Shown: positions 39,445-64,000, counted from the stretch's first letter. The stretch is 64,000 nt of DNA from an uncultured virus (IMG/VR IMGVR_UViG_3300042867_001762) (IMGVR_UViG_3300042867_001762), one strand, 5' to 3'. Notes: generated by a model from the letters alone, not told the origin. Numbers and translations: made by a program.

Positions 39445-39831
39445 TCATATTGCTCCTTGTTGGTGGCGTTCGGGGCACCGCTCAGGATCGGGCGGGTCCG
39501 GCTTTAGGGCGGGCGGGGCTGGCACTCTCTGTCCAGCCCTGTACCATTCCTGAGTACCATCTGGATAGATAATAGCTGGTCCGTTATCCCGGTGACGCTT
39601 GCCATTCCGGCACCAGTATTGAGTACCATCTGGATAGATAATAGCTGGCCCATCACCCCGGTGAAGCCCGCCATCCTGGTACCAACACTGAGTACCATCT
39701 GGATATATGGCAGCGGGTCCGTCATCCCGGTGAAGCCGGCCCCTGCTGTTGCGAACGCAGTAATACCCGTTTTTGTAAACACCACCGGCTTCAATGATTG
39801 AAGAAATAGTTTCCCAGGTATCAAGTTTCAT
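39445..39831 (-). CDS. HRDDGPA-repeat protein
   Basis: MKLDTWETISSIIEAGG + three repeats; tail reads through a motif copy. Confidence 0.85.
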   Translation of the reverse strand: MKLDTWETISSIIEAGGVYKNGYYCVRNSRGRLHRDDGPAAIYPDGTQCWYQDGGLHRGDGPAIIYPDGTQYWCRNGKRHRDNGPAIIYPDGTQEWYRAGQRVPAPPALKPDPPDPERCPERHQQGAI

Positions 39832-41462: not shown

Positions 41463-41637
41463 CCTATTGTTGCTGGTTAGTGATGCGGTCGATTGCGGCG
41501 GGTTCGACCTTCAGGATCGGGGGACTCCGGCTTTAGGGCCGGGTCGTCGTGTCAGCTCTCAGTCCTGTGAGTATTTTCTTTTTTGTGGACATGGTGTGCC
41601 AGCATGCCTCATGTGTGGATTACTGGAGTAGTTTGCC

Positions 41638-41985
41638 TTACAGGAAGTATTCCTCGGGATCTTCATTTTCATCTTCCCCAAAGCGCTTGCCATTCAGGTA
41701 CCAGAACTGAGCACCATCTGAATATGTAATTGCTGGACCATCATCCCTATGAATCAGGCCATTGCGATACCAGTATTGACTACTTGGATATATGACGGCA
41801 GGTCCATCATCCCGGTGAAGCTGGCCATTACGGTACCACTCCTGCTTGCCATTTGGATATATGACAGCAGGTCCATCATCCCGGTGAAGCCCGCCATGAT
41901 TATTCCTGATCTCGTACCTCATGTGTTGAAAGGCACCTCCGGCTTGGAGGAGAGATGAGATAGCCTCCCAGAGATCTAGTTTCAT
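41638..41985 (-). CDS. HRDDGPA-repeat protein
   Basis: MKLDLWEAISSLLQAGG + three repeats. Confidence 0.9.
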   Translation of the reverse strand: MKLDLWEAISSLLQAGGAFQHMRYEIRNNHGGLHRDDGPAVIYPNGKQEWYRNGQLHRDDGPAVIYPSSQYWYRNGLIHRDDGPAITYSDGAQFWYLNGKRFGEDENEDPEEYFL

Positions 41986-42513
41986 TTATTTTTTACTCTG
42001 AAGTTTGCCATTCAGATACCATTTCTGAGTACCGTCTGGATAGATGATAGCTGGTCCATCATCCCGGTGAGGCTTGCCATTCCGGTACCAAAATTGTTTG
42101 CCGTCTGAAAATATAACAGCAGGCCCATCTTCCCGGTGAGGCTCGTCGTTCTGGTACCAATGCTGTTCACCATCTGGATGAATGATAGCTGGTCCATCAT
42201 CCCGATGAATCTTGTCATTCCGGTACCAATGATGACTGCCATCCGGATCTACAATGGCAGGCCCGTCTTCCCGGTGTAGCTGGCCATTCCGGTACCAGCA
42301 TTGCCTACCGTCAGGGAATACCTCAGCAGGCCCGTCATCACGGTGGAGCACGCCATTCCGGTACCAGTATTGGAAGCCGTCAGGGAATACCTCAGCAGGC
42401 CCGTCTTCCCGGTGAAGATGGCCCTTACTGTTCCTGATCTGGTATCTTCCGTGCTCAAACTTACCGCCAGCATCGAGGAGGGAGGATATTGCTTTCCAGA
42501 CGTCTAGTTTCAT
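41986..42513 (-). CDS. HRDDGPA-repeat protein
   Basis: MKLDVWKAISSLLDAGG + six repeats. Confidence 0.9.
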   Translation of the reverse strand: MKLDVWKAISSLLDAGGKFEHGRYQIRNSKGHLHREDGPAEVFPDGFQYWYRNGVLHRDDGPAEVFPDGRQCWYRNGQLHREDGPAIVDPDGSHHWYRNDKIHRDDGPAIIHPDGEQHWYQNDEPHREDGPAVIFSDGKQFWYRNGKPHRDDGPAIIYPDGTQKWYLNGKLQSKK

Positions 42514-42909
42514 CTAGTCTCCTGCCTTATGTTTACGCTGGCCATCCTGGCACCAAATCTCAGTGCCATCTGGATGGATAATAGCAGGGCCATCATCACG
42601 GTGAATCTCATCATTCTGATACCAAACCTGAGTACCATCCTGATATATAAGAGCAGGCCCGCCATCCCGATGAATAGTACCGTTCCGGTACCACTCCTGA
42701 GTACCGTCTGGACATGCGATAGCAGGCCCGTCTTCCCGATGAAGCACGCCATCCCGGTACCAATAGTGCCTACCGTCTTGAGATATAATGGCAGGTCCGT
42801 CATCCCGGTGAATCATGCCATTACTATTCCTGATCTCATATATTCCGTTTCGAAAGACACCACCTGCTTCGATGATAGATGACAAGGCTTCCCAGAGATC
42901 TAGTTTCAT
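42514..42909 (-). CDS. HRDDGPA-repeat protein
   Basis: MKLDLWEALSSIIEAGG + four repeats. Confidence 0.9.
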   Translation of the reverse strand: MKLDLWEALSSIIEAGGVFRNGIYEIRNSNGMIHRDDGPAIISQDGRHYWYRDGVLHREDGPAIACPDGTQEWYRNGTIHRDGGPALIYQDGTQVWYQNDEIHRDDGPAIIHPDGTEIWCQDGQRKHKAGD

Positions 42910-43202
42910 TTTATCTTCCCGGTGGAACCGGATTGACGATAACCCTCCCCGATCCGCTCATCAACAAGCGCGCCGTTCCAGTACCAATACTGTCTGCCAT
43001 CGGGATATGTAAGAGCAGGACCGTAGGCCCGGTGACGCAGGCCATTCTGGTACCAATAGCGCCTACCGTCCAGATATATCAGAGCTGGGCCGCCATCCCG
43101 GTGAATCTTTCCATTATTATTTGTAAGCTCGTACCTTCCGTTTTGAAAGGTACCGCCTGCTTCAATGAGGGAGAATATGTCTTCCCAGACTTCTAGTTTC
43201 AT
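42906..43202 (-). CDS. HRDDGPA-repeat protein
   Basis: MKLEVWEDIFSLIEAGG + two repeats. Confidence 0.9.
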   Translation of the reverse strand: MKLEVWEDIFSLIEAGGTFQNGRYELTNNNGKIHRDGGPALIYLDGRRYWYQNGLRHRAYGPALTYPDGRQYWYWNGALVDERIGEGYRQSGSTGKIK

Positions 43203-43522
43203 TTATCTACCCAGTGACGATTGCCATCCCGGTACCATTCCTGATCACCATCTGGATAGATGATAGCAGGACCGTCGGCCCGGTGACGCAGGCCATTCCG
43301 GTACCAGCTTTGAGTGCCATTAGGTAGTATGACCGCAGGGCCGTCGCCCCGATGAAGCGCGCCATTCCGGTACCATTCCTGAGTGCCGTCTGCATATATG
43401 ATAGCAGGCCCGTCGCCCCGATGGAGATGGCCATTACTAGCCCGGACCTCATACCTATCGTCTTGAAACTTACCGCCGGCATCGAGGAGGGAAGATATTG
43501 CTTCCCAGACATCTAGTTTCAT
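43199..43522 (-). CDS. HRDDGPA-repeat protein
   Basis: MKLDVWEAISSLLDAGG + three repeats. Confidence 0.9.
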   Translation of the reverse strand: MKLDVWEAISSLLDAGGKFQDDRYEVRASNGHLHRGDGPAIIYADGTQEWYRNGALHRGDGPAVILPNGTQSWYRNGLRHRADGPAIIYPDGDQEWYRDGNRHWVDK

Positions 43523-43529
43523 TTATTTT

Positions 43530-43997
43530 TTACTCTGGATTTTGCCATTTCTGGAGTTTGCCATTCAAATACCAGGATTTAGTACCGTCTGAATAAATGA
43601 TAGCAGGCCCGTCTTCTCGGTGAGGCTTGCCATCCCGGTACCATTTCTGAGTGCCATTTGAATAGATGGTAGCAGGCCCGTCATCCCGGTGAGGCTCGTC
43701 GTTCCGGTACCAATGCTGAGTGCCATCTGGATATACAACAGCAGGCCCATTGTCCCGGTGGAGCTTGCCATTCCTGTACCATTCCTGACTACCATCCGGA
43801 TAGATAATAGCAGGACCATCATCCCTGTGTAGCTGGTCGCTACGATACCAATACTGAGTACCGTGTGGATATACAACAGCAGGTCCGTCTTCCCGGTGAA
43901 GCTCGCCATTACTATCTACAATCTGATACCTTCCGTATTGAAAGACACCGCCGGCTGCAATGAGGGATGAGATGGCTTCCCAGGCATCAAGTTTCAC
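43530..43997 (-). CDS. HRDDGPA-repeat protein
   Basis: MKLDAWEAISSLIAAGG + five repeats. Confidence 0.9.
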   Translation of the reverse strand: MKLDAWEAISSLIAAGGVFQYGRYQIVDSNGELHREDGPAVVYPHGTQYWYRSDQLHRDDGPAIIYPDGSQEWYRNGKLHRDNGPAVVYPDGTQHWYRNDEPHRDDGPATIYSNGTQKWYRDGKPHREDGPAIIYSDGTKSWYLNGKLQKWQNPE

Positions 43998-44451
43998 TTA
44001 TCCATCCTACCTTGTGTTGATAGGCGCCATTCAGGTGCCAAGACCCCTTACCATCAGGATAGATGATAGCTGGGCCGTCTTCCCGGTGACGCATGCCATG
44101 CCGATACCAAAGCCGAGTACCATCCGGATAGATAGCAGCAGGCCCGTCATCCCGGTGACGCTGGCCATCACGGTACCAATGACAACTACCATCAGGACAG
44201 ATGATAGCAGGGGCGTCATCCCGGTGACGCTCGCCATTCCGGTACCAGTATCGTATACCATTAGACTCTATGGCAGCAGGGCCATCATCCCGGTGAAGCA
44301 AGCCATTCCGGTACCAAAGCTGAGTGCCATCAGGAAAGATGGCAGCAGGGCCGTCATCCCGGTGAAGCAAGCCATTACTGTTCCTGATCTCGTACCTTCC
44401 GTATTGAAAGACGCCACCAGCATCGAGGAGAGACCAGACGTCTAGTTTCAT
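43987..44451 (-). CDS. HRDDGPA-repeat protein
   Basis: MKLDVWSLLDAGG + five repeats; GGAGG RBS; first clear gene after the motif at 44567. Confidence 0.9.
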   Translation of the reverse strand: MKLDVWSLLDAGGVFQYGRYEIRNSNGLLHRDDGPAAIFPDGTQLWYRNGLLHRDDGPAAIESNGIRYWYRNGERHRDDAPAIICPDGSCHWYRDGQRHRDDGPAAIYPDGTRLWYRHGMRHREDGPAIIYPDGKGSWHLNGAYQHKVGWISET

Positions 44452-51577: not shown

Positions 51578-52072
51578 TCAGGATCGGCCGGACCCGACTT
51601 TAGGCCCGGCCCCGATTGTCACGATTGCCATATTCTTTAGCTTATCAGCGGCAGCCTTATAGCTAACCTTCATACTCTCTATTTTCTCTACCTTCAATCG
51701 GATTATTTCCTTTATGCTTTCCCTGTCTAATGCGGCATTAGAACCCAGATCAAATGGATACAAAAGAGTGAAGTTCTTTTTCAGAACTCTTTTTGGAGAC
51801 TTTACCCACACCATGATAGAGTAAATGATTCCTGTGCTGCTAGGAAAGGCAGAAGGATCTGGCCATATCCTATGCTCGTACCAAGCAAACAGGGGTATAG
51901 TAACCTTGAAGACTTTATGATTATGGTTATTGCAGGCAACAATATATTTTGTTATCTTACGCAAATCATCAGGATGCAGCAGCGGGACAAACTCTGGTCT
52001 GCTCTCTGTTAGTATAGATATAGCTTCTTCGCTGGATCTTGCATAAGACAGCGCGACTTTGTCAAGTTTCAT
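51578..52072 (-). CDS. hypothetical protein (MKLD start)
   Basis: MKLDKVALSY...; AT-rich; tail GPKVGSGRS encoded by a motif copy. Confidence 0.65.
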   Translation of the reverse strand: MKLDKVALSYARSSEEAISILTESRPEFVPLLHPDDLRKITKYIVACNNHNHKVFKVTIPLFAWYEHRIWPDPSAFPSSTGIIYSIMVWVKSPKRVLKKNFTLLYPFDLGSNAALDRESIKEIIRLKVEKIESMKVSYKAAADKLKNMAIVTIGAGPKVGSGRS

Positions 52073-52328: not shown

Positions 52329-52695
52329 CAGGATCAGGGCACACCGTCTTTAGGACTGGAGCGAGTCTAGAAAAAAGAAAATGCTAACAGGATCAGGCGA
52401 GTATGTTTTTAGGACCGCGTGAAGTTGACAAAAAGACAAAGGGCGACAGGATCAAAAGAATCTGTTTTTAGGACCGGCGCGTTTCACATAGAAACAAGTA
52501 TATAGACACACACAGGTCAAACCGATACAGGATCACAGATCCCCGTCTTTAGGACGGAGCAAGGGCAGAGGATTGCAGGCAATCGGCAAACCCCTACAGG
52601 ATCAGCAACACCCGTCTTTAGGACCGGAACGCTGCAATCCTCTGCCTGACAGAGGGGCAACTGTATCAGGATCAGAAATCGCTGTTTTTAGGACC
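52329..52695 (-). repeat. tandem array of six motif copies with unique intervening sequence
   Basis: Copies at 52329, 52388, 52447, 52528, 52597, 52667 (periods 59, 59, 81, 69, 70); no credible gene. Confidence 0.85.
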
Positions 52696-52725
52696 GGAGC
52701 ACACAACGCGCGCGCGAATAGATCG

Positions 52726-54228
52726 CCCGCCCCCGGTTGTCCCGTTGGCAGGTGTGTTGCAGGTTGTAGGTACCGGGGAGAGTCGCCCCTCCCCGGTAGT
52801 GGCTTCAATCAAGCCAAAACAAGCCTTTTTCTAACCAGCTACAGGCAGCATGCATGGCCCGTGCCCTGTCCGCTTCGAGCGGCGCAAAGCGGGCACATTG
52901 AAAGGCCATCGCAATACACTCCGTCCACGTAGGCTCGACGTCAGGACGGCTAGGAGGAAGTTCCAAAAAGCGCAGCATTATTGCCACCTGTGTAGGGGTA
53001 AGCTGTCATTCTAACAGGAAAGGGAGCCGGGTTATCCCGGCCCCCACCTGCCTGCCTCACTTCAGCTTGGCGACAGCTTCAGCGAGACGGTCAGCCAGCC
53101 GGAGAACCTCGGCACGGCTAGCCTCGGTACCAGCGGTCCCGGTACCATCCACCTTGACAGAGAGCTTATCAGCGTTCTCCCGGAGAAACGCCACTCCCTT
53201 GTCGGTCATGATGAGGTCCAGCGCAATCCCCACAAAGTGGGGAGCGTAGACCGTGACAGGAAAGCGAGCGGACACACCGTAGATGCTGATAGCACCCTTC
53301 TCGCTGGCCTTGGCGGTGTAACCACGCGCCTCGCCCTTAGTCTTGGTAGCAGCATCGGCACGGGCCTTCTCTGCTGCCAGCGCAGCCTCGGCAGCCTTGA
53401 GACGCTCCATGAGAGCTGCCACATCCGGGCTGACAGAGGTGACGGTGTTGTTGGCGACGGGGGTTCCGACCTTGATGAGCGACATGATGCTCTCCCTGTA
53501 TTTAGGCTCCACGAGATACCCGACCACCGGGTATAACGCTTCACCTTTGCGGCTATGTAGTGGGCCGCCGTTCTGCTCTACAGGATCGGCGGACCCCGAC
53601 TTTAGGACCGCCGCCCCCTGTCAAGAAAAACTGCTTTCTAGCAGGTACTATCTAGCAACCTACCAAGCATCCCTATCAACGCGCGCGAGACAATAGCTAT
53701 CCAGCAAGCCCGGGCGGCCTGCTAAAGATTATAAAGTTATCTCCCAGCTCTCTACCGTTAGGGAAAGCCAGAATCAGTAAAAGCACAACAGGATCACACA
53801 ACACCGTCTTTAGGACTGAAGCCGCAATCCTAATAACAGATAGAAAAGATCCTGCAAACATTGCATCAGCATTACAAAGCCACTAGGCACACCGCACCCG
53901 TCCCCGGTTGTCCCGTTGACGCAGGTTACAGGATCGGCGGACTCCGTCTTTAGGACCGCCGGCCCCTGTCAGCTATCATAAAACGCAAAAACAAAACGGA
54001 TCTTTTGTCCACATAACTAATCCACCGGATACACCTCTCCCCGCCCCCGACTATAGCGTTGACGCGTAACAGGATCGGGAGAAGCTGTTTTTAGGACCGG
54101 CACAATAAAAAGGGGCATAAACTTTGCAGGCAATCCCGGTCCTAAAAACGGGCTTTCCCGATCCTGTTATTGTTCCCCGGTTTTTTCTTGCAATCGACGC
54201 ACCTATCCCGCCCCCGGTTGTCCCGTTG
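52726..54228. repeat. 22-bp direct repeat CCCG(C/T)CCCCGGTTGTCCCGTTG, three copies
   Basis: 52726-52747, 53897-53918, 54207-54228; partial copies near 54314 and 55058. Confidence 0.75.
53057..53485 (-). CDS. SEKGA-family protein, copy 2
   Basis: MSLIKVG...KASEKGAISIYGVSARFPVTVYAPH. Confidence 0.85.
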   Translation of the reverse strand: MSLIKVGTPVANNTVTSVSPDVAALMERLKAAEAALAAEKARADAATKTKGEARGYTAKASEKGAISIYGVSARFPVTVYAPHFVGIALDLIMTDKGVAFLRENADKLSVKVDGTGTAGTEASRAEVLRLADRLAEAVAKLK

Positions 54229-54457
54229 ACCCGTCTGTCAGGATCGTCGGCGTATGTTTTTAGGACCGACGACCGGACTGCCCCGCGCCGGGCAATAAAA
54301 AAAGGAATAGTTCGCCCGCCCCGGTTTGTCACCAGAGTACGTCCTACAGGATCAGGCGAGTATGTTTTTAGGGCCGGTGGCGAACCCGGCGGGTCCGGCC
54401 GGGCGCCGGTCGCCGGAAAAGGGGCAGGCGGGTCGCCCCGCCCACCCCCGGCCCGCC

Positions 54458-54901
54458 TCACTTCAGGCGGGCAACCGCACCGGCCAGCCGGTCTGCGAGG
54501 CGCAGCACTTCCGCCCGGCTCGCCTCCGTCCCGGCCTGCCCGGTGCCGTCCACCTTGACAGACAACTTATCCGCGTTTTCACGCAGGAAGTTGACCCCCT
54601 TATCCGTCATGATAAGGTCAAGGCACACCCCGACAAAGTGCGGGGCATACAGCGTGACAGGGAAGCGGGCGCTAACCCCGTAGATGGAAACCGCGCCCTT
54701 TTCCGATGCCTTCGCAGAATAACCCCGCGACTCCGCCTTGACCTTTTCAGCGGCGTCGGCGCGGGCCTTTTCCGTCGCGACCGCAGCTTCCGCCGCTGCG
54801 AGGCGGGCCATGAGCGCGGCAATGTCAGGAGACAGAGACGGCGCCGTGACGGGCGTGGCAACGGTGGCGGCGACAGGGGCGGGGAGCTTGATAAGCGACA
54901 T
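54458..54901 (-). CDS. SEKGA-family protein, copy 3
   Basis: MSLIKLP...KASEKGAVSIYGVSARFPVTLYAPH. Confidence 0.85.
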   Translation of the reverse strand: MSLIKLPAPVAATVATPVTAPSLSPDIAALMARLAAAEAAVATEKARADAAEKVKAESRGYSAKASEKGAVSIYGVSARFPVTLYAPHFVGVCLDLIMTDKGVNFLRENADKLSVKVDGTGQAGTEASRAEVLRLADRLAGAVARLK

Positions 54902-55207
54902 GGCTTGTATCCTGCGTTCTAGCCTATCCGCAACCCCCGACCATCGGGCGCTGCGTCATCGGCGCTGCGTCGCGGCGTCGTCGCCGGGACACCCTACAAG
55001 ATCAGGGGAAGCTGTTTTTAGGACCGGTGGCGACCGCGCTTTTCGGACAATAGGACGCCCGCCCCCGGACTCGCCGTTGGCCCTTGCAGATAAGTTTTGC
55101 AATCTTTTAGCCCCGCATGGCACACCTCCCACGTATGCGGGACAAGATCAGAGGAGTATGTTTTTAGGCCCGGTCCGGAGTCAGGTGCCCCCCCGGCACC
55201 CCGTCCC

Positions 55208-55408
55208 CTAGCGGACGTCCGCCAGCGCCCGCAGCATCTCGGCGCGGCGGGTCAGGTACTCCCGCCCCGTCATTTCCAGATTGCAGCGTTCCGCCGCCCA
55301 TCCCCGCAGCGCCCACGGGGCGCGGGCGAGCGCCGCTTCCATCCCGCCCTCGCGGGCGTTCACCGTCGCGTTGCCGTTGCCGTCAATCGCAATCTCCGTC
55401 ACCTGCAT
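55208..55408 (-). CDS. cassette gene, hypothetical
   Basis: Motif + GGAGG + ATG. Confidence 0.7.
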   Translation of the reverse strand: MQVTEIAIDGNGNATVNAREGGMEAALARAPWALRGWAAERCNLEMTGREYLTRRAEMLRALADVR

Positions 55409-55503
55409 GCAGCCTCCGTTGTGGCACCTATCAGGATCAAAAGTTTATGTTTTTAGGACCGGCCGGACTCGGGACCGGAGCTAGGCCCCGGTCCGTTGTC
55501 CGC

Positions 55504-55797
55504 TCACTCGTATCGCGGGCGCTGCCGGCTCTGCCATTCGGCGAGTGCTTCCGGGTCCCGCGTGCGGCGGACTTCTACATCGGTCCCGCCGAGAACCGAG
55601 AAGCGGTCATGACGCGGCGCGTAATGCGCTTCCTCGCGTTCCAGCCGCCGGGCAAACCGGCGCGCCCGGCGCGGGTTGTCAAAAGACCACGCCTTTTCTA
55701 CATTCGACCAGTCGAACCACCAGCCGCCTTCCTCATGCCCGCCAAAGTGGCGGGAGGTTGAAACGACTGCCACGAAAACCTGCTCGCTGCTGCGCAT
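55504..55797 (-). CDS. cassette gene, hypothetical
   Basis: FGGHEEGGWWF...RPRYE; motif + GGAGG. Confidence 0.75.
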   Translation of the reverse strand: MRSSEQVFVAVVSTSRHFGGHEEGGWWFDWSNVEKAWSFDNPRRARRFARRLEREEAHYAPRHDRFSVLGGTDVEVRRTRDPEALAEWQSRQRPRYE

Positions 55798-55881
55798 CGT
55801 CGCCTCCGTGTCTAACAAGATCAAAAGAATCTGTTTTTAGGACCGGCTCAGCAAAGAACCCCGCGCGTGCGGGGCCGGACC

Positions 55882-56175
55882 TCAGTCCGCGAGAAGCTGC
55901 GCCTCAAACTGGTAGGCCAGTGAGCTGCTTTGATAAGCGTAGCTGCCGACATAGCGGCGACTGACTTCCGCCTGTACCTGCGCCGCCGTCAACGGCGGGA
56001 ACACCTTGACGCCTCCGGTGTTGGCGCCCATCTCCCCCGACTTTTCAGTCAAGGCACCTAGGATGCCCCGGTCCCGGTCAACGAACACAACTTCGCCGGA
56101 AGGGCACTGCATAGCCACGATGCGTTGACCATGGGGACCATAAAGACGACCGGTGTTGAAGTGAACCTTGGACAT
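55882..56175 (-). CDS. cassette gene, hypothetical
   Basis: FNTGRLYGPHGQRI...FVDRDRGI. Confidence 0.75.
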   Translation of the reverse strand: MSKVHFNTGRLYGPHGQRIVAMQCPSGEVVFVDRDRGILGALTEKSGEMGANTGGVKVFPPLTAAQVQAEVSRRYVGSYAYQSSSLAYQFEAQLLAD

Positions 56176-56366
56176 AGCTGCCTCCTGCTAGTTGGTTTCG
56201 TTCCGGCTTCTGCTATACAGGATCAGAGGAGTATGTTTTTAGGACCGGTCGCGAGCCAGGTGGGGCTGGCGCCCCAGCCGGTCACTCGTCGTCGCGGTCC
56301 CGGCGGACTCGCCCCCGGCACGCCCGGCGTTTCGATTCCGCCTTGCGGTCGCGCATGACCCCGCCT

Positions 56367-56558
56367 TTACGGGTTAGGATCATCTGCAACAAGATTGCGT
56401 TTCGCGGCTTCATAGGCTACCCTCGCACGGCGGCGCGTGTCCGCCAGAAAATAGTTTTTCTCGTATGAATGCACCGCATGACCGGACACCGGCGCATAGC
56501 CGGGCGGATAATGCGGCGGGGCGAACAACGCCCGGAGCGTTTGTCGGAGCCGTTCCAT
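56367..56558 (-). CDS. cassette gene, hypothetical
   Basis: Motif + GGAGG + ATG. Confidence 0.6.
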   Translation of the reverse strand: MERLRQTLRALFAPPHYPPGYAPVSGHAVHSYEKNYFLADTRRRARVAYEAAKRNLVADDPNP

Positions 56559-56637
56559 CGTGCCTCCCGGCTATCAAGATCGGCCCGGTATGCTTTTAGG
56601 ACCGGGAAGGAAAGGGGCAGGTGTCCGCCCCGATCCC

Positions 56638-56820
56638 CTAGTTGTGAGCGTAGCCGTGGTGAGGTGCGATACCCGCCCACACCAGTTCGGCTAGATAGCG
56701 GTTGTTGAATACGAGCACCCCGCCGGGGAGTCCGCGCACTGCCCAGTGCCCGATCTCGCCGGGCAGGAACTCCCCGGCATCAACGTGTTCCTGATCAATG
56801 CAAAAGAAAAGCTCTTTCAT
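56638..56820 (-). CDS. hypothetical protein
   Basis: GGAGG RBS. Confidence 0.6.
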   Translation of the reverse strand: MKELFFCIDQEHVDAGEFLPGEIGHWAVRGLPGGVLVFNNRYLAELVWAGIAPHHGYAHN

Positions 56821-56838
56821 GCGCAGTCCTCCTACCCG

Positions 56839-57033
56839 CTAATCGCGGTGGTCGCGGGTCTCGTCCGCTTCGAGCATCATCGCACGGTGCTCCCATGCAC
56901 GTTGCAGGGCGGCAACATAGACGGCAGTCGACGGTGCATGCTCGCTTTCCCGGCGCATCCGGGCATAGTCCGGGGGTGCACAGTCACACGCAGGGCGTTG
57001 CTTACAAGTAGGGCAAGAAAACTTGCTTTTCAT
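56839..57033 (-). CDS. cassette gene, small Cys-rich protein
   Basis: CPTC...CDC; motif + GGAGG. Confidence 0.65.
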   Translation of the reverse strand: MKSKFSCPTCKQRPACDCAPPDYARMRRESEHAPSTAVYVAALQRAWEHRAMMLEADETRDHRD

Positions 57034-57134
57034 ACCGGCCTCCGTTGTGCTTATCAGGATCAGGTAAGTATGTCTTTAGGACCGGGGCCGGAAGGAAAGG
57101 CCGGGGGATTTCTCCCCCGACCCGCCCCGGACGG

Positions 57135-57527
57135 TCACACCTTGCGGATAGCATGACCAGTCAGGACCAGCCCGATGCCGTCGGGCACCTGCACCCCGGA
57201 GAACAGGGCGGCAGCTTCCGTCCCCCGGATGGTAAGGCCGAACCGGGTGCCCCGGCGGTCGACAAGGCCACGGCACCGGAGACAGGACAGCGCCCGCTCC
57301 ACGTTGGAGACCGGGATGCCTTGCGTTTCCGCAATCTCAGCGGCAGTAGCAGCCCGACGCCCGCGCCGGGTTGCCTTGCGGCGGGCAATATCTGCGAGGA
57401 TGGCCGTTTGACGCGGCCCCGGCGTGGTGGTATTCCCATAGTTAAGGCTTGACAGCTTGCCGACAAGCACGTCAGCAGCGGCACGGGAAAGAGCAAGGGT
57501 GAGGGAACGAGCAGACTGCTTGCGCAT
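57135..57527 (-). CDS. cassette gene, winged-HTH-like DNA-binding protein
   Basis: ATAAEIAETQGIPVSNVERALSCLRCRGLV...LTIRG. Confidence 0.7.
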   Translation of the reverse strand: MRKQSARSLTLALSRAAADVLVGKLSSLNYGNTTTPGPRQTAILADIARRKATRRGRRAATAAEIAETQGIPVSNVERALSCLRCRGLVDRRGTRFGLTIRGTEAAALFSGVQVPDGIGLVLTGHAIRKV

Positions 57528-57648
57528 CGCGTCTCCATTCGCGGCGTTTGTTTCGTCGTCGCCGCTTGTCTAACAGGATCAAAAGAATCTGTTTTTAGGA
57601 CCGGCGGGGAAGGAAAGGGCCGGGCGAACCCGGCCCCCTTCCTACCGT

Positions 57649-58161
57649 TCACGCCTTGCGGGTGACCCGATCAAGCTCATCGGCAAGGCTGCGCACTGCC
57701 GATTCCGAAGCACCCGTGCCCGCCTGGCCCGTGCCGTCGACCTTGACCGAAAGCTTCGCCGCATTCTCCCGGAGGAACGCCGACGCCTTGCCGGTCATAA
57801 CCAGATCACGGATGATTCCCACGAGGTGGGGAGCGTAGAGCGTCACCGGGAACTTGGTAGAGACGCCGTAGATCGAGATAGCGCCCTTCTCCGACGCCTT
57901 CATGCTGTATCCACGGCTACCGCCACTCGCCGCACGGGCAGCCTCGGCCGCATCGGCCCGGGCCTTCTCTGTAGCGAGCCCCGCCTCGGCCGCCGCAAGC
58001 CTCGCCATAAGAGCCGCAATGTCCGGGCTCGTGCTCGTCGCAGCGACCGGCGCCGGGAGAGGCATCGGCGCCATAGGGGCGGGCGCCGTCACACGGGGAG
58101 CGGGGAGAGCAAGGGTGTTGCCAGAGTTGCCGGTGTTGGAACCAAACTTGATGAGCGACAT
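57649..58161 (-). CDS. SEKGA-family protein, copy 4
   Basis: MSLIKFG...Pro-rich linker...KASEKGAISIYGVSTKFPVTLYAPH. Confidence 0.85.
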   Translation of the reverse strand: MSLIKFGSNTGNSGNTLALPAPRVTAPAPMAPMPLPAPVAATSTSPDIAALMARLAAAEAGLATEKARADAAEAARAASGGSRGYSMKASEKGAISIYGVSTKFPVTLYAPHLVGIIRDLVMTGKASAFLRENAAKLSVKVDGTGQAGTGASESAVRSLADELDRVTRKA

Positions 58162-58343
58162 TGTGCTTTCCCTTTTGTTTCTAGGGCCTAGCGTACCGCC
58201 GACCACCGGCGCTACGTTTAACCCGTTATGTGCGGCGCATCGTATCGTTTCGTCGCCGCCGTTCTGTCTAACAGGATCAAAAGAATCTGTTTTTAGGACC
58301 GGTAGGCTCGGGTCCGGGGCTACGCGCCCCGGCCCGTCACCCG

Positions 58344-58610
58344 CTAGTCTTCGAGCGCCCGGAGAATCGCCACCGCGTTAGCGGGACGGTTGGCGCGGAC
58401 CACCGCCGCAACCCAGTGGTTGCGACCCGTCTCGCGGCCGGCGAGGTGGCACACCTGCTTGAACCAACCCACCCGGCCCCGGTTCTCCACCGGGTAAGCG
58501 ACCGAGCGGTCGCCCCGGGCGATGCCCGCCGCACTGGCGAGCACGTCCAACCCGTCGTGCTGCGCGGCGAGAACGCGAACGTTGCGAGCTTCCTTCTTTG
58601 TCAGCTTCAT
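58344..58610 (-). CDS. cassette gene, hypothetical
   Basis: Motif + GGAGG + ATG. Confidence 0.7.
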   Translation of the reverse strand: MKLTKKEARNVRVLAAQHDGLDVLASAAGIARGDRSVAYPVENRGRVGWFKQVCHLAGRETGRNHWVAAVVRANRPANAVAILRALED

Positions 58611-58705
58611 CGTGGCCTCCATGTCTAACAGGATCAAAAGAATCTGTTTTTAGGACCGGGGAGGAGAGGGGCGGAGCCGGGTGAACCCGGCCCCCGCCCG
58701 GACGG

Positions 58706-59014
58706 TCATGCCGTCTCGGTAAGGTCAAGCTCCGAGACGAGCGCTTCGGTATCCCCGTCGCCCATGACAATCCCGTACCGGGTGCCGGCGGGCAGGCGCG
58801 TCACCCGCAGGAAGTCGGTTGACGGGACCTCATAGTCCGCCACTTCCGGGTGGAGGTCGATGAGACGAGCCGCAAAGGCGTCGTCGTCGGCCGCCTCCAC
58901 GGCCGCGACCAGTACCGGGTCACGGCGCAGGCGGGCAAGAGCGCCGGCCTCCACCCCCTCGATTTCGAGGGTGCCGTAGTCGGTAGAGAGAATAATGCCG
59001 ATGACGTTGGTCAT
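58706..59014 (-). CDS. cassette gene, hypothetical
   Basis: RRDPVLVAAVE...LPAGTRYGI. Confidence 0.7.
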   Translation of the reverse strand: MTNVIGIILSTDYGTLEIEGVEAGALARLRRDPVLVAAVEAADDDAFAARLIDLHPEVADYEVPSTDFLRVTRLPAGTRYGIVMGDGDTEALVSELDLTETA

Positions 59015-59170
59015 GCTAACCTCGGGCAGGGCGGGCCGGCAGGAGCGCCGGGAACCGCTGGACACCTATCAGGATCAAAAAGTTATGTTTTTAGGACCGA
59101 TGACGCCCGCAAAAAAAGACAAAAAAACCCCGGCTGATTAGGCCGGGGCCGGGCGAGGCCCGCTGTGAGG

Positions 59171-59581
59171 CTAGCTCTCACTGTGACAAACACATCCCCA
59201 CCCTGCGCAGGAGTGAGTATCTTCGAGCACGTCGTCCGGCAGGAACGCCCCGCGCCCGTCAAGAGCTTCCTCGACTTCATGACGGAACAGCATGCAGGCG
59301 GCCACGTCCTCCAACGTGTAGACGTATCCGACTTGCGGGTTGCGGCCCGGCTGAAAGCGCACGGTCCCCGTGCGGAAGGGGCGCACGCCTTCAGACTCCA
59401 TCCCGCCGAAAGCGGCATGGATATTTGGGAGAGCGGCCCAGAGCCGCTCGAATCCCGCACGGTCCCCACGAAACAGGAGCTTGCCGTTAACGTAGAACTC
59501 CAACGCCCGGCCCACGTCCGACGGGAAATCGATGCCAGCGAGACGAATGTCAAGGGCGAGAGAGCGCTTTTGCGAAGCCAT
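59171..59581 (-). CDS. cassette gene, hypothetical
   Basis: Motif + GGAGG + ATG. Confidence 0.7.
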   Translation of the reverse strand: MASQKRSLALDIRLAGIDFPSDVGRALEFYVNGKLLFRGDRAGFERLWAALPNIHAAFGGMESEGVRPFRTGTVRFQPGRNPQVGYVYTLEDVAACMLFRHEVEEALDGRGAFLPDDVLEDTHSCAGWGCVCHSES

Positions 59582-59725
59582 GCTATCCTCCGTTGTGCGG
59601 CCCGTGCCGCCGTTCCGATGTCTAACAGGATCAGAAATATCTGTTTTTAGGACCGCTGCCAGGTTCGAGACCTGGCAAAAGAAAAGCCCCGGCGGGGCCG
59701 GGGCGGTGGAAGGGTGGGCGGCGAA

Positions 59726-59983
59726 CTAAAATAGTTCGTCGCCGATGATAGCGAAAGCTTCCGACGCGGAAAGACAACCGGCGTCCCACTGCTCGCGGGC
59801 CTCAGCGGGCAGGCGGGCGAAAAGGCCCGCCTCCGTCATGAGCTTGGCAAGGCCGGCATCGACGCCGCACCAAGCGGCGCGGTCAGTTCCGTAGCCCGCG
59901 CGGCGCGCGGCAGCCGCATCGCGGTCGGCGCGCCGGAGCGCGACGATGTTGGATCGGGCAGTGAGGCTGTCGTTGTTGTTCAT
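59726..59983 (-). CDS. cassette gene, probably leaderless
   Basis: ATG only 6 nt after GATCTTG, no RBS. Confidence 0.6.
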   Translation of the reverse strand: MNNNDSLTARSNIVALRRADRDAAAARRAGYGTDRAAWCGVDAGLAKLMTEAGLFARLPAEAREQWDAGCLSASEAFAIIGDELF

Positions 59984-60315
59984 GCTTATCAAGATCAAAA
60001 GATAATGTTTTTAGGACCGGGCAGGTTCGGGACCGGGGATGCGACTCCCCGGGCCGGGACGGCTAATCCTCCGTCTCGATCTCCCGGCGCTCGGAACGCC
60101 GGACGGCCCGCGCCGTCTTGCGCTTGACGGCCGCCTTGCCCCCGCCGCCACGGGGACAACACCCCGGGCACAGGCAAAGCGCGTGCCCGAAGTTTCCAGC
60201 GATGCGAATCCGAACCGATTGAGCCATGCTGACCTCCGCCTATTAGGATCAGAAAAGAATGTTTTTAGGACCGGTCCGGCTCGGCACCGGGGACAAGCCC
60301 CGGCCCGATTCCTTA

Positions 60316-60528
60316 TCAGTAGCCCGCTTGCCGGAGCGCCCGCAGCGCATCGGAGTGGCGCAGGAGCCTTTGAATACTTGTCATGTCCATCTCGGCTATC
60401 GCCGCCCGGGCGCGGTGGGCCTCCCATCCGACCGTGGCCAGCGTACCGGGGAGCCCCATCGGAGCCATGGCCGTCAGCTTGCTGCCGTCGGGAAAGGTCA
60501 CCGTCATCTTGCCAGCCTTGTCTTTCAT
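60316..60528 (-). CDS. cassette gene, hypothetical
   Basis: Motif + GGAGG + ATG. Confidence 0.65.
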   Translation of the reverse strand: MKDKAGKMTVTFPDGSKLTAMAPMGLPGTLATVGWEAHRARAAIAEMDMTSIQRLLRHSDALRALRQAGY

Positions 60529-60928
60529 CGCTGCCTCCGTGACTAACAGGATCAGGAAAGAATGTTTTTAGGACCGGCGAGAAAGGGGGCACCGGCCCCG
60601 GAGACTAACCCGCCATCCCGTAGAACAAGACGGGATAGACGAACACGAGAACAAACATACCGGCAAGGAAGAAAAACGCATCGGCAGCATCGCGGCGGGT
60701 CATACTCACCTCTTGCCTATCAAGATCAAAAAAGAATGTTTTTAGGACCGGCGGAAGGCGGGCGGGGGATTGCTCCCCCGGTCCGCTAGTCGCGGCGCTT
60801 TTCCCTTCGGCGGGCATCCCACGAGCGGGGACGACCCTTTGTCGGGCGGGGCGACTCACCCGCCGGGCGGCCCCGGCCCATGCGGGCGGGGCGGTTATCG
60901 GTTTCGTCGTCAGGGATGTTCCACGGCT

Positions 60929-61243
60929 TCACAGCCCCACCCCCGGCTTGCGGACCGTGACCGTGGCATCGGCCACCGGCAGCCCGGCAGCTTCGCAGTC
61001 CCGGCGGATAACCGCCGGAATCTCGCGGCGGTTGAAGCCACGGCGTACCATCGCCGTTTCCAACTCTCCGGCGAGGTTGGCCAGTGCCTCCACCACCGGC
61101 CCGGCGTCGCCGCCGATGGCGAGCAAGGCAAAGGCGAGATCCGTGACCTGATCTGCACGGGCAGCCAGGCCCGCGTCCCCGGCCCGGCGGGCCATGGCAT
61201 TTACGATTCCAATGCGAACAGAGAGGGTCGTTTCGGTACGCAT
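60929..61243 (-). CDS. cassette gene, hypothetical
   Basis: Motif + GGAGG + ATG. Confidence 0.7.
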   Translation of the reverse strand: MRTETTLSVRIGIVNAMARRAGDAGLAARADQVTDLAFALLAIGGDAGPVVEALANLAGELETAMVRRGFNRREIPAVIRRDCEAAGLPVADATVTVRKPGVGL

Positions 61244-61346
61244 GTTGCCTCCTGCGGCGTGTTGTTTGCCGCTCTGCCTATCAGGATCAAAACTTTCTGT
61301 TTTTAGGACCGGCCGGGGAAAGAGCCCGGCCGGCGCCGGGCATCTC

Positions 61347-61814
61347 TCACCCCTCCCACGGGGCGCGGGCGTTCAAGCACGCTTCCGGGGTGAGGTCCGG
61401 CTCCCACCGGGCCAGCATCCCCTCGATTGCGGCGAGGGGAACCCCGTGAGAGTTACGGGCGGCGCACTCCGCCGCGTCCCGCCCCCACGGCGTGCGCGGC
61501 TCGACGAACTGCACCCTGTATCCGTGGAAGGTCGCGGCGCGGACATATTCCCGCGCCTCCCATCCTTGAGTCATAGTGTTGTCCACGATGACGTGGGTAA
61601 CACCGGCTTCCATCGCCTCCGCCGTGCGGCGGAGGTTGGCCGCGTGGTGGGCCCCGAGCTTCGACCCGTCGAAGCGGTACTCGCCATCGACCATGAAAAA
61701 ATCATCTGTGGAAAACACGGGAGCCGTCTCGACGCCCGGGACGTTGGCGAGCACCTTGGCAAGGGTGCTCTTGCCGCTACCGGGGACGCCACGCATAATC
61801 GTCAGGGTCTTCAT
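61347..61814 (-). CDS. P-loop kinase, N4BP2/polynucleotide-kinase-like, copy 2
   Basis: IMRGVPGSGKS, STDDFFMVDGEYRFD, VDNT, RNSHGVP. Confidence 0.85.
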   Translation of the reverse strand: MKTLTIMRGVPGSGKSTLAKVLANVPGVETAPVFSTDDFFMVDGEYRFDGSKLGAHHAANLRRTAEAMEAGVTHVIVDNTMTQGWEAREYVRAATFHGYRVQFVEPRTPWGRDAAECAARNSHGVPLAAIEGMLARWEPDLTPEACLNARAPWEG

Positions 61815-61928
61815 CGTATCCTCCGTGCCGGTTTGTTTCGTTCCGGCTTCTGTCTAACAGGATCAAAAGATAATGTTTTTAGGACGGGTGACGAGCCGGG
61901 CAGCCCGGTCGATTGACCGGGGAGCCGC

Positions 61929-62261
61929 TCACGCGGGACGGCTCAAGCCCCGGCAGCCAACCGGCTGACCATCGGGGCCGCGCACAAGCGCCCCGGGGGA
62001 AAGGACGTCGGTACGGCCCCGCACCGCCGGGTGTCCGGCGACGAGGCCGGAGACAACCCACGTCACGCCGGGGGCCGGCGCGGGGAGGCCGACGACCTCC
62101 CCGAAAGAGGTTTCGAAAATCTCCACGCCGTCGACGACGGCGGCCACGGCCGTCTTTGTCGCCACGCGGGCGACGGTCCCGTCGGCGGGCAGGACGAGCG
62201 CGGGCGCGCCCGCTTGGTCGACGACGGTGATGGTGTGGGGGGTCAAGTTCACAAACGCCAT
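61929..62261 (-). CDS. cassette gene, NLTPH-type hypothetical protein
   Basis: FVNLTPH...VARV...GLP...VS..VA...RTD. Confidence 0.75.
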   Translation of the reverse strand: MAFVNLTPHTITVVDQAGAPALVLPADGTVARVATKTAVAAVVDGVEIFETSFGEVVGLPAPAPGVTWVVSGLVAGHPAVRGRTDVLSPGALVRGPDGQPVGCRGLSRPA

Positions 62262-62401
62262 GCGAGCCTCGGGTGTTGCGGGTTGTTCTGACGCCTAACA
62301 GGATCAAGAGAGAATGTCTTTAGGACCGGCCGGGGCCGGGAAAGAAACGCAGAAAACGGCAAGGCCCCGCCTTGCTGGCGGGGCGGGGCGATGGGCGGGA
62401 G

Positions 62402-62611
62402 TTAGTTCCCGCCGCAGTGATAGCAATCGTGCCCTTGCCGGGAGCTGCACTCCCCGCTAAGCGGGCCATTGTCGGTCCCGCAGTAGTAGCAGATGTCCCG
62501 GCCCGGGGTGGGCCGCAGGCGCCACTCGGGAGTGGTGGCGGTGGGGGTCTCGGCCTTGTCGGCGGCCGAAGCCGCGCTCAGGCGCTCAAACATGCAGTCA
62601 TAGCTAGACAT
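62402..62611 (-). CDS. cassette gene, small Zn-finger
   Basis: CYYC...CYHCGG. Confidence 0.65.
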   Translation of the reverse strand: MSSYDCMFERLSAASAADKAETPTATTPEWRLRPTPGRDICYYCGTDNGPLSGECSSRQGHDCYHCGGN

Positions 62612-62749
62612 ACTGCCTCCGGGTGTTGCGGGTTGTTCTGACATCTAACAGGATCAAAAAGAAATGTTTTTAGGACCGGCCGGGGCCGGGAAAGAAAAGC
62701 GGAAAAGCGGAAACCCCGCCGGGTTAGGGCGGGGTCGGGGGGGCGGGGG

Positions 62750-63112
62750 TCACCAGTAAACCGGGTGCCCCCAGACGGAGTAGGAAACTCCGTCTTCGTC
62801 TTGGAGGACCTCGTCCCCCAGGGGATAGTAAGCGGGGTCGTTGACCACCTCCTCCGCGCGGGCGGGGGTGATGCGCCCCCCCTCGACGAGGGGGGCGAGG
62901 ATTGCCCCCTTTCGGGCGGCGGCGTCGCCGCTGGCCGCCCATGCGGCGGCGGCGGCTCCGTAGGCGGCTGCTTCGCCGCCGTCACCGTAGGCGGCGGCGG
63001 TGGTGGCGGCGAGGTCGGCGTCTTCAGCCGCTTGCGCGGCGAAGGAGAGGAGGGCGTGGGCGCGCCCGATGGCGGCGTTGACGGCGGCGGTGGTGGCGCG
63101 GGTGGTCTTCAT
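62750..63112 (-). CDS. cassette gene, Ala-rich hypothetical
   Basis: Motif, GAGG RBS, MKTTRAT. Confidence 0.65.
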   Translation of the reverse strand: MKTTRATTAAVNAAIGRAHALLSFAAQAAEDADLAATTAAAYGDGGEAAAYGAAAAAWAASGDAAARKGAILAPLVEGGRITPARAEEVVNDPAYYPLGDEVLQDEDGVSYSVWGHPVYW

Positions 63113-63264
63113 GGTTGCCTCACAGACAGGGGGAAGGGGTTGACGGACTGGACCCTGTCTCGACATACAAGATCAAAAAGAAATGTTTTTAGGACGGGCC
63201 AGGCTCGAGACCGGGCAAAAGAAAACCCCGGCAGGGCCGGGGCGAGAGAAGCGGCGGGCCGGGT

Positions 63265-63525
63265 TCACCGGAGCGGGCGGGCCGCGCCACCCATACGGGC
63301 GCGCATCGCCCGGATGCGCTCCGCTACCAACTCCGCTTCCGTCGGCGGGGGCGGAGGGGCGTCAAGCACCCCCACCACCACCGTACCGTCGTCGAGCTGC
63401 CCCCGATGAATGCGGGCCGCCTCAGCGTCACCGGCCTCGCTGTAGGCGGCCCGCAGACGGGCGGCGATGACCGCCGTGCGGACGGCGGTGGCATCAACGA
63501 TGGTAGCAGTGCGGCGGATGGTCAC
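63265..63525 (-). CDS. cassette gene, hypothetical
   Basis: Motif + GGAGG + GTG. Confidence 0.6.
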   Translation of the reverse strand: MTIRRTATIVDATAVRTAVIAARLRAAYSEAGDAEAARIHRGQLDDGTVVVGVLDAPPPPPTEAELVAERIRAMRARMGGAARPLR

Positions 63526-63657
63526 GGCGGCCTCCAAACGGGACTGGATTGTCCCGCGCATCAGGATCAAAAGATAATGTCTTTAGGACCGGCCGGGGCC
63601 GGGAAAGAAACCCGGAAAAGCGAAAGCCCCGGCAGGGCCGGGGCGATTCACTACGGG

Positions 63658-64000
63658 TTAGTAGTTGTCGTCGTCGTCGTTATCATAGAACGATATCGAC
63701 GCGGACTCTTTCGTCTGATAGAAAGAGACCTCGACTGAATAATACCCGTTGCTATTGCCTTGCCAGCGCAGGGTGACGTAGCCCTTCCCCGTGGCGAAGC
63801 GGTAGAACGTCCAACCGCTTGTTCCGAGCGAGTGGCCGTCCTCGTCGATGTCGTCGACAATCTCGCCCGCGCACTCCGCCATGACGAGCGGGGAGTTAAC
63901 AAGGTCGCACAGGTCGCCGTCGACCTGCGTGAGGCCAACATACTCGCAGCAGCTGCGCGAGTGGTGCATCAACCACTCGCTGCCGTCCGCGAACGTGAAT
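63658..64000 (-). CDS. conserved phage hypothetical protein, copy 2 of 38550-38912 (5' end outside the window)
   Basis: HHSRSCCEYV...WTFYRFATGKGYVTLRWQGNSNGYYS. Confidence 0.75.
   Translation of the reverse strand, partial: FTFADGSEWLMHHSRSCCEYVGLTQVDGDLCDLVNSPLVMAECAGEIVDDIDEDGHSLGTSGWTFYRFATGKGYVTLRWQGNSNGYYSVEVSFYQTKESASISFYDNDDDDNY

Follow-up and report, generated by a model that had tools for sequence, protein, structure and literature searches.

Why should a phage genome carry small, mostly orphan genes in one unbroken row, each preceded by nearly the same intergenic DNA? This question is raised by a stretch of 64,000 nucleotides (the window) from an uncultured virus, IMG/VR record IMGVR_UViG_3300042867_001762 (hereafter G001). 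An original prediction made from the window had described about 20 consecutive cassettes in it, each consisting of a terminator hairpin, a bipartite motif, a leader and one small open reading frame (ORF), and had compared the row both with the repeated promoter/stem-loop units (PeSLs) of T4-type phages and with an integron. Our analyses make it likely that the array consists of promoter-gene-hairpin units that are shuffled by homologous recombination at their joints, in the manner of PeSLs.

The G001 record measures 371,675 bp, and a 127-bp terminal overlap points to a circular assembly. Part of this record, in reverse complement, makes up the window, which wraps past the record end (window position x corresponds to G001 position 416,029 − x). 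Nearly all ORFs of G001 run in one direction, which is the minus strand of the window; the units, genes and motif copies listed below lie on this strand except where noted. By Pfam and PHROG matches the gene set includes DnaE, RecA, gyrase, Lon, GroEL, DnaJ, trigger factor and RIIA, and additionally a tubulin-like protein, a gpA-type terminase whose identity to those of cultured phages does not exceed 25.7%, and numerous ORFs of very large size that have no match. The recombination genes present are RecA, SMC_N/Metallophos and PD-(D/E)XK/Cas4. All 24 sequencing runs with phage DNA are lake or river metagenomes, and each of them was available as assembled contigs.

A row of 25 repeated units

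The array comprises 25 motif-headed units in G001 350,792-361,032. Twenty-two of their motif copies lie in the window (54376-63590), in keeping with the roughly 20 units first noticed, and the row extends 1.2 kb past the window end. On the minus strand the joints share one order: a stop codon is followed by a GC-rich hairpin and, after 1-47 nt, by the motif, which precedes the leader, the ribosome site and the start codon. The bipartite motif is real: 100 dinucleotide shuffles gave an expectation of 0.00, and the window has GGTCCTAAA-N13-GATCYTG in exact form at 29 places, of which 28 fall on the minus strand. The joints resemble each other over 30-150 bp that include hairpin, promoter-like motif and leader. 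Those ahead of ORFs 62611-62402 and 62261-61929 (units U06 and U07), already singled out as near-identical, agree at about 90% over about 88 columns.

Leaders had been said to carry GGAGG as a rule; this sequence stands ahead of 10 of the 24 promoter-proximal ORFs and a shorter variant (GAGG, GGAG, AGGA or GGGAG) ahead of 12, but the U17 leader contains none of these patterns, and in U13 the ATG follows the motif after 6 nt without a ribosome site (leaderless-type). A GC-rich hairpin of −8 kcal/mol or lower was placed 3' of 23 of the 26 ORFs by a crude hairpin finder, but the U-tract that had been called frequent corresponds to a T-rich tail in 7 of these. A terminator scan gave 15 hits compared to 8.8 ± 3.6 in shuffled sequences, its minus-strand hits marking 7 distinct joints. 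The ORFs themselves behave as real genes, with a G+C content by codon position of 0.69/0.53/0.78, and 15 of the 26 tested are conserved in frame in the related metagenomic contig L057.

Four units with unrelated genes (U01, U02, U03 and U05) have in common a leader of 55 nt, at about 90% identity (window 63110-63167; L018 10821-10879, 11391-11449 and 11882-11939). It contains an 8-bp hairpin that ends at the ribosome site. Since all of its pairs are invariant, this hairpin provides no evidence either way.

The motif as a candidate promoter

With at most one mismatch to CCTAAA-N13-GATCCTG the window contains 58 sites, and the minus strand carries 56 of these. The sites are divided between the array (22 sites in 54997-63590), a hub of 2 kb that separates the array from the long gene region (14 sites in 52329-54375), and the long gene region (22 sites scattered over 1859-51607). 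In the whole of G001 we counted 77 sites with at most three mismatches, 75 on the gene strand, ranging from 350.8 kb to 123 kb across the record end. The one correction to the original prediction is that the motif is not confined to the array: it precedes genes across about 145 kb and serves about 38 further genes or operons beyond the array.

The copies fall into three groups, namely class A, class B and the copies of the hub. Class A consists of the 25 array copies, with an A+T-rich, (A/G)ACA-n5-TTTT-like spacer that is usually followed by (T/A)TAG. Class B, a GC-spacer variant with the consensus GG(C/G)CCTAAAGCCGG...CCGATCCTG-aaGGnCGAAcc, has 38 copies in G001 that are 0.1-7.8 kb apart (mostly 2-7 kb) and lie 12-30 nt past a stop codon and about 20-50 nt ahead of the next start. 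The 22 scattered window copies belong to this class (first 1859-1887, last 51579-51607). Class B positions are kept in the related contig L052, where sites 9836 and 11521 correspond to G001 11,886 and 14,088 ahead of orthologous genes. Around its CCTAAA box class B forms a short palindrome, CCGGs-CCTAAA-GCCGG, with a pairing score of 6.26 compared to 5.70 ± 0.15 in shuffles, none of 500 of which reached it; at the 22 sites in window 1859-51607 it takes the form of a stem-loop overlapping the upstream box.

Taken together, orientation, position, two-box geometry and the leaderless U13 make a phage-specific two-box promoter the best reading of the motif. It would be in general use over the 145 kb, and would not be a dedicated recombination site.

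Relatives differ in gene content and order

The searches revealed no close relative in IMG/VR or among GenBank phages. A megablast of window 54000-64000 against GenBank phages gave no match. Motif scans of IMG/VR did not reveal a second array; they returned 14 and 18 stretches with a single copy each, as expected by chance, and a 312-kb IMG/VR record with one motif match held no further copy. Protein-led scans of IMG/VR found no close relative, and with an alignment as query this database yielded relatives of 30-47% only, bar four pieces of 58-80% over 20-31 residues. From a metagenome scan led by MSLIK, one of the cargo families, we kept 80 loci, including six with 66-80% identity; close MSLIK homologues lie on metagenome contigs as long as 163 kb. 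Species genomes, scanned with the motif, added L132, a 2.9-kb contig of a related phage with one class B motif and 65% protein identity to the 34.5-kb region of G001. L132 is filed in a metagenome-assembled genome (G003) labelled Geobacteraceae; it gives no host evidence, because no other contig of that assembly has a true motif copy (10 one-mismatch matches look like chance).

The one relative covering the array is L057, 15.4 kb of a 52-kb contig, which carries its own array with 16 motif copies in 7 kb between flanks homologous to both flanks of the G001 array. It matches 15 of the 26 G001 array ORFs (E ≤ 1e-4) and also has units that are absent from G001, while U01-U07, U13, U14, U19 and U21 have no match in L057 at the same threshold. 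In G001 the blocks common to both genomes are ordered A B C D E F G H I; the L057 order is B A D C E G F I H, which amounts to four neighbour swaps. The joints have a mosaic make-up. The AAA_33 protein of U08 is 81% identical in L057, yet the leaders and the upstream hairpins or terminators are unrelated; at the joint next to U08 the orthologous leader is retained, with the promoter spacer of each genome's own type; and the terminator module upstream of U15 is 82-85% identical to modules ahead of two other L057 genes.

Another relative, L055, is 92% identical to L057 over the common region, and the two differ by four rearrangements. In two of the four, both ends lie inside promoter copies: one motif copy of L055 stands in for a 109-bp L057 unit, and another for a 934-bp L057 unit consisting of a promoter and an MSLIK gene. 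In each case the L055 copy has on its left the left flank of one L057 motif copy and on its right the right flank of the following copy, so that the two are joined in register. The test set beforehand asked whether relatives keep the gene order and whether breakpoints fall in the motif: the relatives have changed the order, and some of the breakpoints are located within the motif.

Promoter copies resemble each other within a genome

The 13-nt spacers between the two boxes carry a signature of their genome. Spacers starting with (A/G)ACA occur in 24 of 25 copies of the G001 array and at none of 17 L057 sites; conversely, GCCGG starts 15 of the 17 L057 spacers and none of the 25 in G001. Identity within ten orthologous promoter pairs is 52-66%, and each of these promoters has a twin within its own genome at 76-100%. 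The U20 spacer is the sole one that keeps the type of its L057 orthologue. In addition, identical spacers recur in non-adjacent units (AACAGATTCTTTT four times, AACATTATCTTTT three times). Judged from these comparisons, the promoter spacers evolve in concert within each genome.

A possible trace of exchange is one contig of run X7 (605 nt, depth 3.9), which leads from the end of U17 by way of a promoter copy into the start of U17 and thereby goes back 698 bp, the length of this unit. The junction spans a 38-bp exact repeat and is compatible with a tandem duplication, an excised circle or a product of word-graph assembly; it lends weak support to duplication or circularisation of U17. The run contigs break at promoter repeats, where they make adjacency and rare junctions unreadable, and the other run joints listed either have short sides or map outside the stretch, to joints that look alike. 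The segment 62800-63400 displayed depth spikes, many loose ends and short apparent joints in 4 of 4 runs compared; it is Ala-rich, GC-rich and of low complexity, and draws contigs of other organisms.

A recombination model for the array

We propose that the region heads the one-directional gene programme of this 372-kb phage, which is uncultured and from fresh water, and that it consists of 25 autonomous transcription units, 22 of which lie in the window. Each unit would consist of a two-box promoter (GGTCCTAAA, a 13-bp A+T-rich spacer and GATCYTG), a short leader, one small, mostly orphan gene, and a GC-rich hairpin that would stop or attenuate read-through. Because promoter, leader, single gene and hairpin recur in each unit, the messages would be mostly monocistronic, and they are probably immediate-early, given the position of the array, the size of its genes and their avoidance of codons read by the phage's own tRNAs. 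The similarity of the joints over 30-150 bp would make them substrates for homologous recombination, probably carried out by the RecA-like, SbcCD-like and Cas4-like proteins of the phage. Unequal exchange between joints would then delete, duplicate, reorder and homogenise units, and the array would be a hyperplastic cassette region of the PeSL type that operates without a site-specific recombinase.

The closest known parallel is provided by PeSLs. These are intergenic repeats composed of a strong sigma-70 promoter and a GC stem-loop that were described in T4-type phages (RB49/phi1, T4/PST and KVP40/nt-1), where they lie in hyperplastic regions ahead of orphan genes and bound indels between close relatives (PMC2839356); promoter activity, terminator activity and formation of mini-circles were shown experimentally (PMC2839356, PMC4122927). 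The array resembles PeSLs, and the analogy drawn by the original prediction was apt. Its layout, as predicted from sequence, is a repeated composite of promoter and GC stem-loop in intergenic position; it forms a hyperplastic region ahead of orphan genes; and two of the four differences between L055 and L057 are indels ending in the repeats, as are the PeSL-bounded indels that have been attributed to homologous recombination. The units are likewise a possible source of small circles, and PeSL stem-loops may extend into the upstream promoter box, an overlap also seen in the class B copies. There are also differences. The promoter of the array is a long phage-specific two-box motif used over about 145 kb, not a sigma-70 consensus; its 25 units stand in one unbroken row that forms a distinct codon-usage compartment; the phage is unrelated to T4-type phages by its terminase; and promoter, terminator and circle formation, which are experimental knowledge for PeSLs, are putative for the array.

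Integrons are a second point of comparison. They combine the integrase IntI, an attI site, cassettes with attC sites and a common promoter, Pc. The array shares with them the tandem arrangement of mostly single, unrelated small genes and a content that varies between relatives, and this outward look is the sole support for an integron-like platform in which a site-specific recombinase would act on the repeated element. We found no match to PF00589 (Phage_integrase) in the entire 371,675 bp of G001 at E ≤ 0.01, where the control was positive in 14 of 14 genomes; the absence of an integrase noted for the window thus extends to the whole genome. Nor did we find an attC-like 3' element, the 3' hairpins of the array being heterogeneous GC stems. 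A resolvase domain was missing from the 151 scanned ORFs of at least 200 amino acids (aa) (E ≤ 1e-5 or 1e-3), although no dedicated serine recombinase search was made and, of the remaining ORFs of this size, six were scanned against PHROGs only and two were left unscanned. Integron cassettes lack promoters and depend on one common promoter, whereas every unit here has its own and exchange would proceed by homology. Since the genome has no integrase and each unit has a promoter, we regard the array as PeSL-like and not as an integron; the integron label is refuted as a statement of membership, and the idea behind it retains hardly any probability.

Weighing the model against other readings

Several points weigh against the proposed model, and these concern first its transcriptional part. 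The starts, stops and timing of the array transcripts are all deduced from sequence features. Only about one third of the array hairpins have a U-tract, and a sigma-70 scan of 54000-64000 yielded 7 weak sites, none of them at a joint. Pfam and PHROG scans of 151 + 28 large ORFs did not reveal an RNA polymerase, with two ORFs of at least 200 aa unscanned; a T7-like RNA polymerase profile gave no match on G001, but its control was silent as well; and sequence searches of PDB with the 2698-aa ORF, the 2056-aa ORF and a sigma-like ORF gave no match. The sole lead for a reader of the motif is this last ORF, a weak candidate for an extracytoplasmic function (ECF)-type sigma factor of 262 aa (G001 177,957-178,745; L009 17957-18745). 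It matches the ECF sigma superfamily TIGR02937 with E 3e-6 and 26.9 bits compared to a cut-off of 42.9, and lies outside the motif-bearing region. Its neighbours are a Cas4-like nuclease gene and the unmatched 2698-aa ORF.

The lack of sigma-70-like matches at the joints and of a cognate polymerase, together with a class B palindrome that exceeds shuffles, could indicate that the motif is some other cis element, such as part of a terminator, a site at which RNA is processed, or one bound by a phage regulator or a nucleoid protein. We consider this quite improbable, as the motif is strictly oriented with the genes, has a fixed two-box geometry, is placed after terminator hairpins and ahead of ribosome sites, leads one leaderless ORF, and occurs in the hub as six tandem copies facing the long gene region. 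A promoter remains the better reading.

The second set of points concerns recombination. The other two differences between L055 and L057, a backbone replacement and a 1.17-kb insertion, are not bounded by the motif, and both promoter-bounded indels sit in the hub, not in the array. Coverage of the array by relatives is limited to L057, at whose 50-82% protein identity breakpoints are not precise to the base. The uniformity of promoters within a genome could also stem from selection for one recognition factor. Finally, the X7 junction may be an assembly artefact; the run contigs were presumably built from 31-letter words, which are shorter than its 38-bp repeat. The reading of the region as a variable platform of single-gene units, with the repeated promoter joints as seams of rearrangement, is supported by the gene content and order of L057, by two of the four L055/L057 differences and by the concerted evolution of the spacers.

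These observations raise the possibility of an ordinary early region, in which promoters are alike by selection, genes turn over through illegitimate intergenic events and the repeats have no role in recombination. That the motif serves some 38 genes or operons outside the array fits this scenario, as do the two differences that are not promoter-bounded, and any viable breakpoint must in any case be intergenic, where the DNA consists mostly of joint. We nevertheless judge an ordinary early region unlikely. It does not readily account for two in-register indels from promoter to promoter, for the recurrence of the AACAGATTCTTTT and AACATTATCTTTT spacers in non-adjacent units, or for terminator and leader modules that are common to unrelated cargo.

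Composition and codon usage

The array differs from its surroundings in composition. Its G+C content is 61-69%, compared to about 51% for the genome, and the same step is seen in L057 (1000-9000). ORFs outside the array have a G+C content by codon position of 0.58/0.43-0.45/0.50-0.51, compared to 0.69/0.53/0.78 within it. The step might suggest a foreign GC-rich island recently gained from a higher-GC phage or a host. This is highly improbable: L057 has this GC-rich array between the same flanks at only 50-82% protein identity, which argues that the array is old; it uses the genome's own promoter boxes; and three of its cargo families have lower-GC paralogues in the same genome.

These three duplicated families allow a direct comparison. 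At 49-79% protein identity, their array copies have a third-position G+C content (GC3) of 0.76-0.85 and their non-array copies one of 0.57-0.59, with nearly equal values at the first and second positions. The codons ACA, AGT and TTA, which are read by phage tRNAs, make up 5%, 5% and 0% of their codon families in the array compared to 24-25%, 11-13% and 5-6% outside it. G001 has five tRNA genes, and an Rfam scan of the window detected tRNAs only. One of these, a tRNA-Ser at 19269-19356 (52.5 bits), has the anticodon ACT with A at the wobble position, which is unusual for a bacterial-type tRNA.

Two causes could lie behind the codon split: an early-gene dialect suited to the tRNAs of a GC-rich host, or a recombination hot spot with biased repair. 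A bolder version of the recombination model would have the promoter copies double as portable homology arms of an integrase-free platform for gene capture, in which the phage's recombination system would continually excise, duplicate and reinsert single-gene units by PeSL-type circles or unequal exchange. We regard this version as rather doubtful. If it is true, the codon dialect would be either a footprint of hyper-recombination (GC-biased conversion) or a deliberate early-gene dialect that host tRNAs would read before the phage's own tRNAs appear.

The hub and its hairpin

The hub (52329-54375) holds 14 motif copies with at most one mismatch, two of them on the plus strand (12-14 in the G001 count), as well as an ORF (53485-53057) and copies of a 22-nt hairpin with a GACAA loop. 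Between 52329 and 52695 six motif copies follow each other on the minus strand at distances of 59-81 bp, without ORFs, and face the long gene region; they resemble a stacked promoter bank.

The 22-nt element, CAACGnGACAAn'CGGGGrCGGG, has 5 matches in the window against 0.01 expected. Copies lie at 52726-52747, 53897-53918 and 54207-54228, with a variant at 54040-61, and further copies in L057 and L055. All 15 copies from G001, L057 and L055 fit a single GACAA-pentaloop hairpin in which 98.9% of cells are paired. Two of its 6 pairs show a compensatory change, and its covariation score was reached by 0 of 500 shuffles, although the copies in L055 and L057 are not mutually independent.

Three of the G001 copies start 8-10 nt past a promoter copy, which places a conserved GNRA-like pentaloop hairpin just downstream of a putative early promoter, as in boxB. 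The boxB (nut) hairpin of phage P22 has a GACAA pentaloop (PMC12550061). The hub hairpin has the same pentaloop, closed by a covarying pair, and follows promoter copies; it differs from P22 boxB in that a 2x2 internal loop splits its stem into two parts of 3 bp each and in that no N-like protein was identified. The array has small Arg-rich ORFs (60932-60786 and 60227-60063), but nothing ties either of them to the hairpin. The hub hairpin may be an N-type antitermination site, which we offer as a lead.

Individual units and cargo genes

The cargo is largely orphan. No Pfam match at E ≤ 0.01 was obtained for 21 of 24 array and hub proteins, and NCBIfam matched none of 27. The exceptions are DUF7448, an AAA_33 P-loop kinase-like protein, a weak winged-helix match and three proteins with unnamed PHROGs. 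In the following, each unit is given with its extent, motif, ORF and product length.

At the window end lies the 3' part (63658-64000) of the U03 ORF, the whole of which (64092-63658; G001 351,937-352,371) encodes a DUF7448 protein (Pfam E 5e-20; phrog_2650 E 1e-30). U04 (63197-63590; motif 63590-63562; ORF 63525-63265, 86 aa) ends in a hairpin with a T-rich tail, and its protein had no Pfam, PHROG or NCBIfam match. U05 (62678-63196; motif 63196-63168; ORF 63112-62750, 120 aa) has the 55-nt leader with the 8-bp hairpin. It is followed by U06 (62328-62677; motif 62677-62649; ORF 62611-62402, 69 aa), with a Cys-rich product, and by U07 (61887-62327; motif 62327-62299; ORF 62261-61929, 110 aa), which matches phrog_30542 (E 5e-20). 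The AAA_33 P-loop kinase-like protein (Pfam E 2.7e-16) is encoded by U08 (61311-61886; motif 61886-61858; ORF 61814-61347, 155 aa). U09 (60750-61310; motif 61310-61282; ORF 61243-60929, 104 aa) is 82% identical at the protein level to its L057 counterpart and contains the overlapping Arg-rich ORF U09b (60932-60786, 48 aa). The product of U10 (60576-60749; motif 60749-60721; ORF 60703-60605, 32 aa) is hydrophobic. After U11 (60273-60575; motif 60575-60547; ORF 60528-60316, 70 aa) comes U12 (60019-60272; motif 60272-60244, ending in GATCCTA; ORF 60227-60063, 54 aa), which is Cys- and Arg-rich.

The leaderless-type unit is U13 (59655-60018; motif 60018-59990; ORF 59983-59726, 85 aa). U14 (59099-59654; motif 59654-59626; ORF 59581-59171, 136 aa) has a canonical terminator at 59150-59126, and the leader of U15 (58658-59098; motif 59098-59070; ORF 59014-58706, 102 aa) is orthologous to that at L057 site 5375. 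U16 (58301-58657; motif 58657-58629; ORF 58610-58344, 88 aa) precedes the 698-bp unit U17 (57603-58300; motif 58300-58272; ORF 58161-57649, 170 aa), which encodes an MSLIK protein. Weak winged-helix matches were obtained for U18 (57084-57602; motif 57602-57574; ORF 57527-57135, 130 aa), whose motif spacer is identical to those of U16, U17 and U22. U19 (56604-57083; motif 57083-57055; ORF 57033-56839, 64 aa) contains a second ORF, U19b (56820-56638, 60 aa). Then follow U20 (56247-56603; motif 56603-56575; ORF 56558-56367, 63 aa), U21 (55845-56246; motif 56246-56218; ORF 56175-55882, 97 aa), U22 (55461-55844; motif 55844-55816; ORF 55797-55504, 97 aa), which matches phrog_30656, and U23 (55172-55460; motif 55460-55432; ORF 55408-55208, 66 aa). 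A motif copy without an ORF (55026-55171; motif 55171-55143, GGGCC...) separates these from U25 (54376-55025; motif 55025-54997; ORF 54901-54458, 147 aa), an MSLIK unit with a 95-nt leader and a hairpin followed by TTTT.

Second copies of cargo genes had been reported elsewhere in the window, and we identified them for three families. The non-array AAA_33 paralogue (39850-40308) is 74% identical to U08 at the protein level, with a GC3 of 0.57 compared to 0.83; the DUF7448 paralogue (38583-38912) is 49% identical to the U03 product (GC3 0.59 compared to 0.81-0.85); and the MSLIK paralogue (32044-32457) has a GC3 of 0.59 compared to 0.76-0.77 in the array copies. The MSLIK family has four copies in the genome (58161-57649, 54901-54458, 53485-53057 and 32457-32044). 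Among the 120 homologues listed, 82 were strong metagenomic matches, and none of those listed had a functional name. The predicted MSLIK structure is of middling quality (mean pLDDT 67, pTM 0.42), and a Foldseek search of PDB with this model gave no match at E ≤ 0.001.

Outside the array, the early region contains a many-copy family of small genes (window ~41,600-44,000, 39,500-39,830 and 33,100-33,700; G001 ~480-2,800, 4,650-4,970 and 10,775-11,392), copies of which also occur in L052, L056 and L057.

Implications

Among the 10 matches listed of 191, a literature search with the motif strings returned only unrelated, primer-type matches; among the papers listed by a separate search on jumbo or huge phages, none described arrays of this kind. 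The array would extend the PeSL principle, the shuffling of orphan genes at seams formed by regulatory repeats, from T4-type coliphages to an unrelated lineage of uncultured huge phages that uses a different promoter. It adds breakpoints that are in register, and promoters that clearly evolve in concert. The codon split between array and genome would be an example of temporal codon partitioning or of recombination-driven composition. The 29-bp candidate promoter, with its two variants and about 75 copies, offers a handle on the sigma factor or polymerase that would run early transcription, and the array defines a list of about 26 candidate genes for host takeover.

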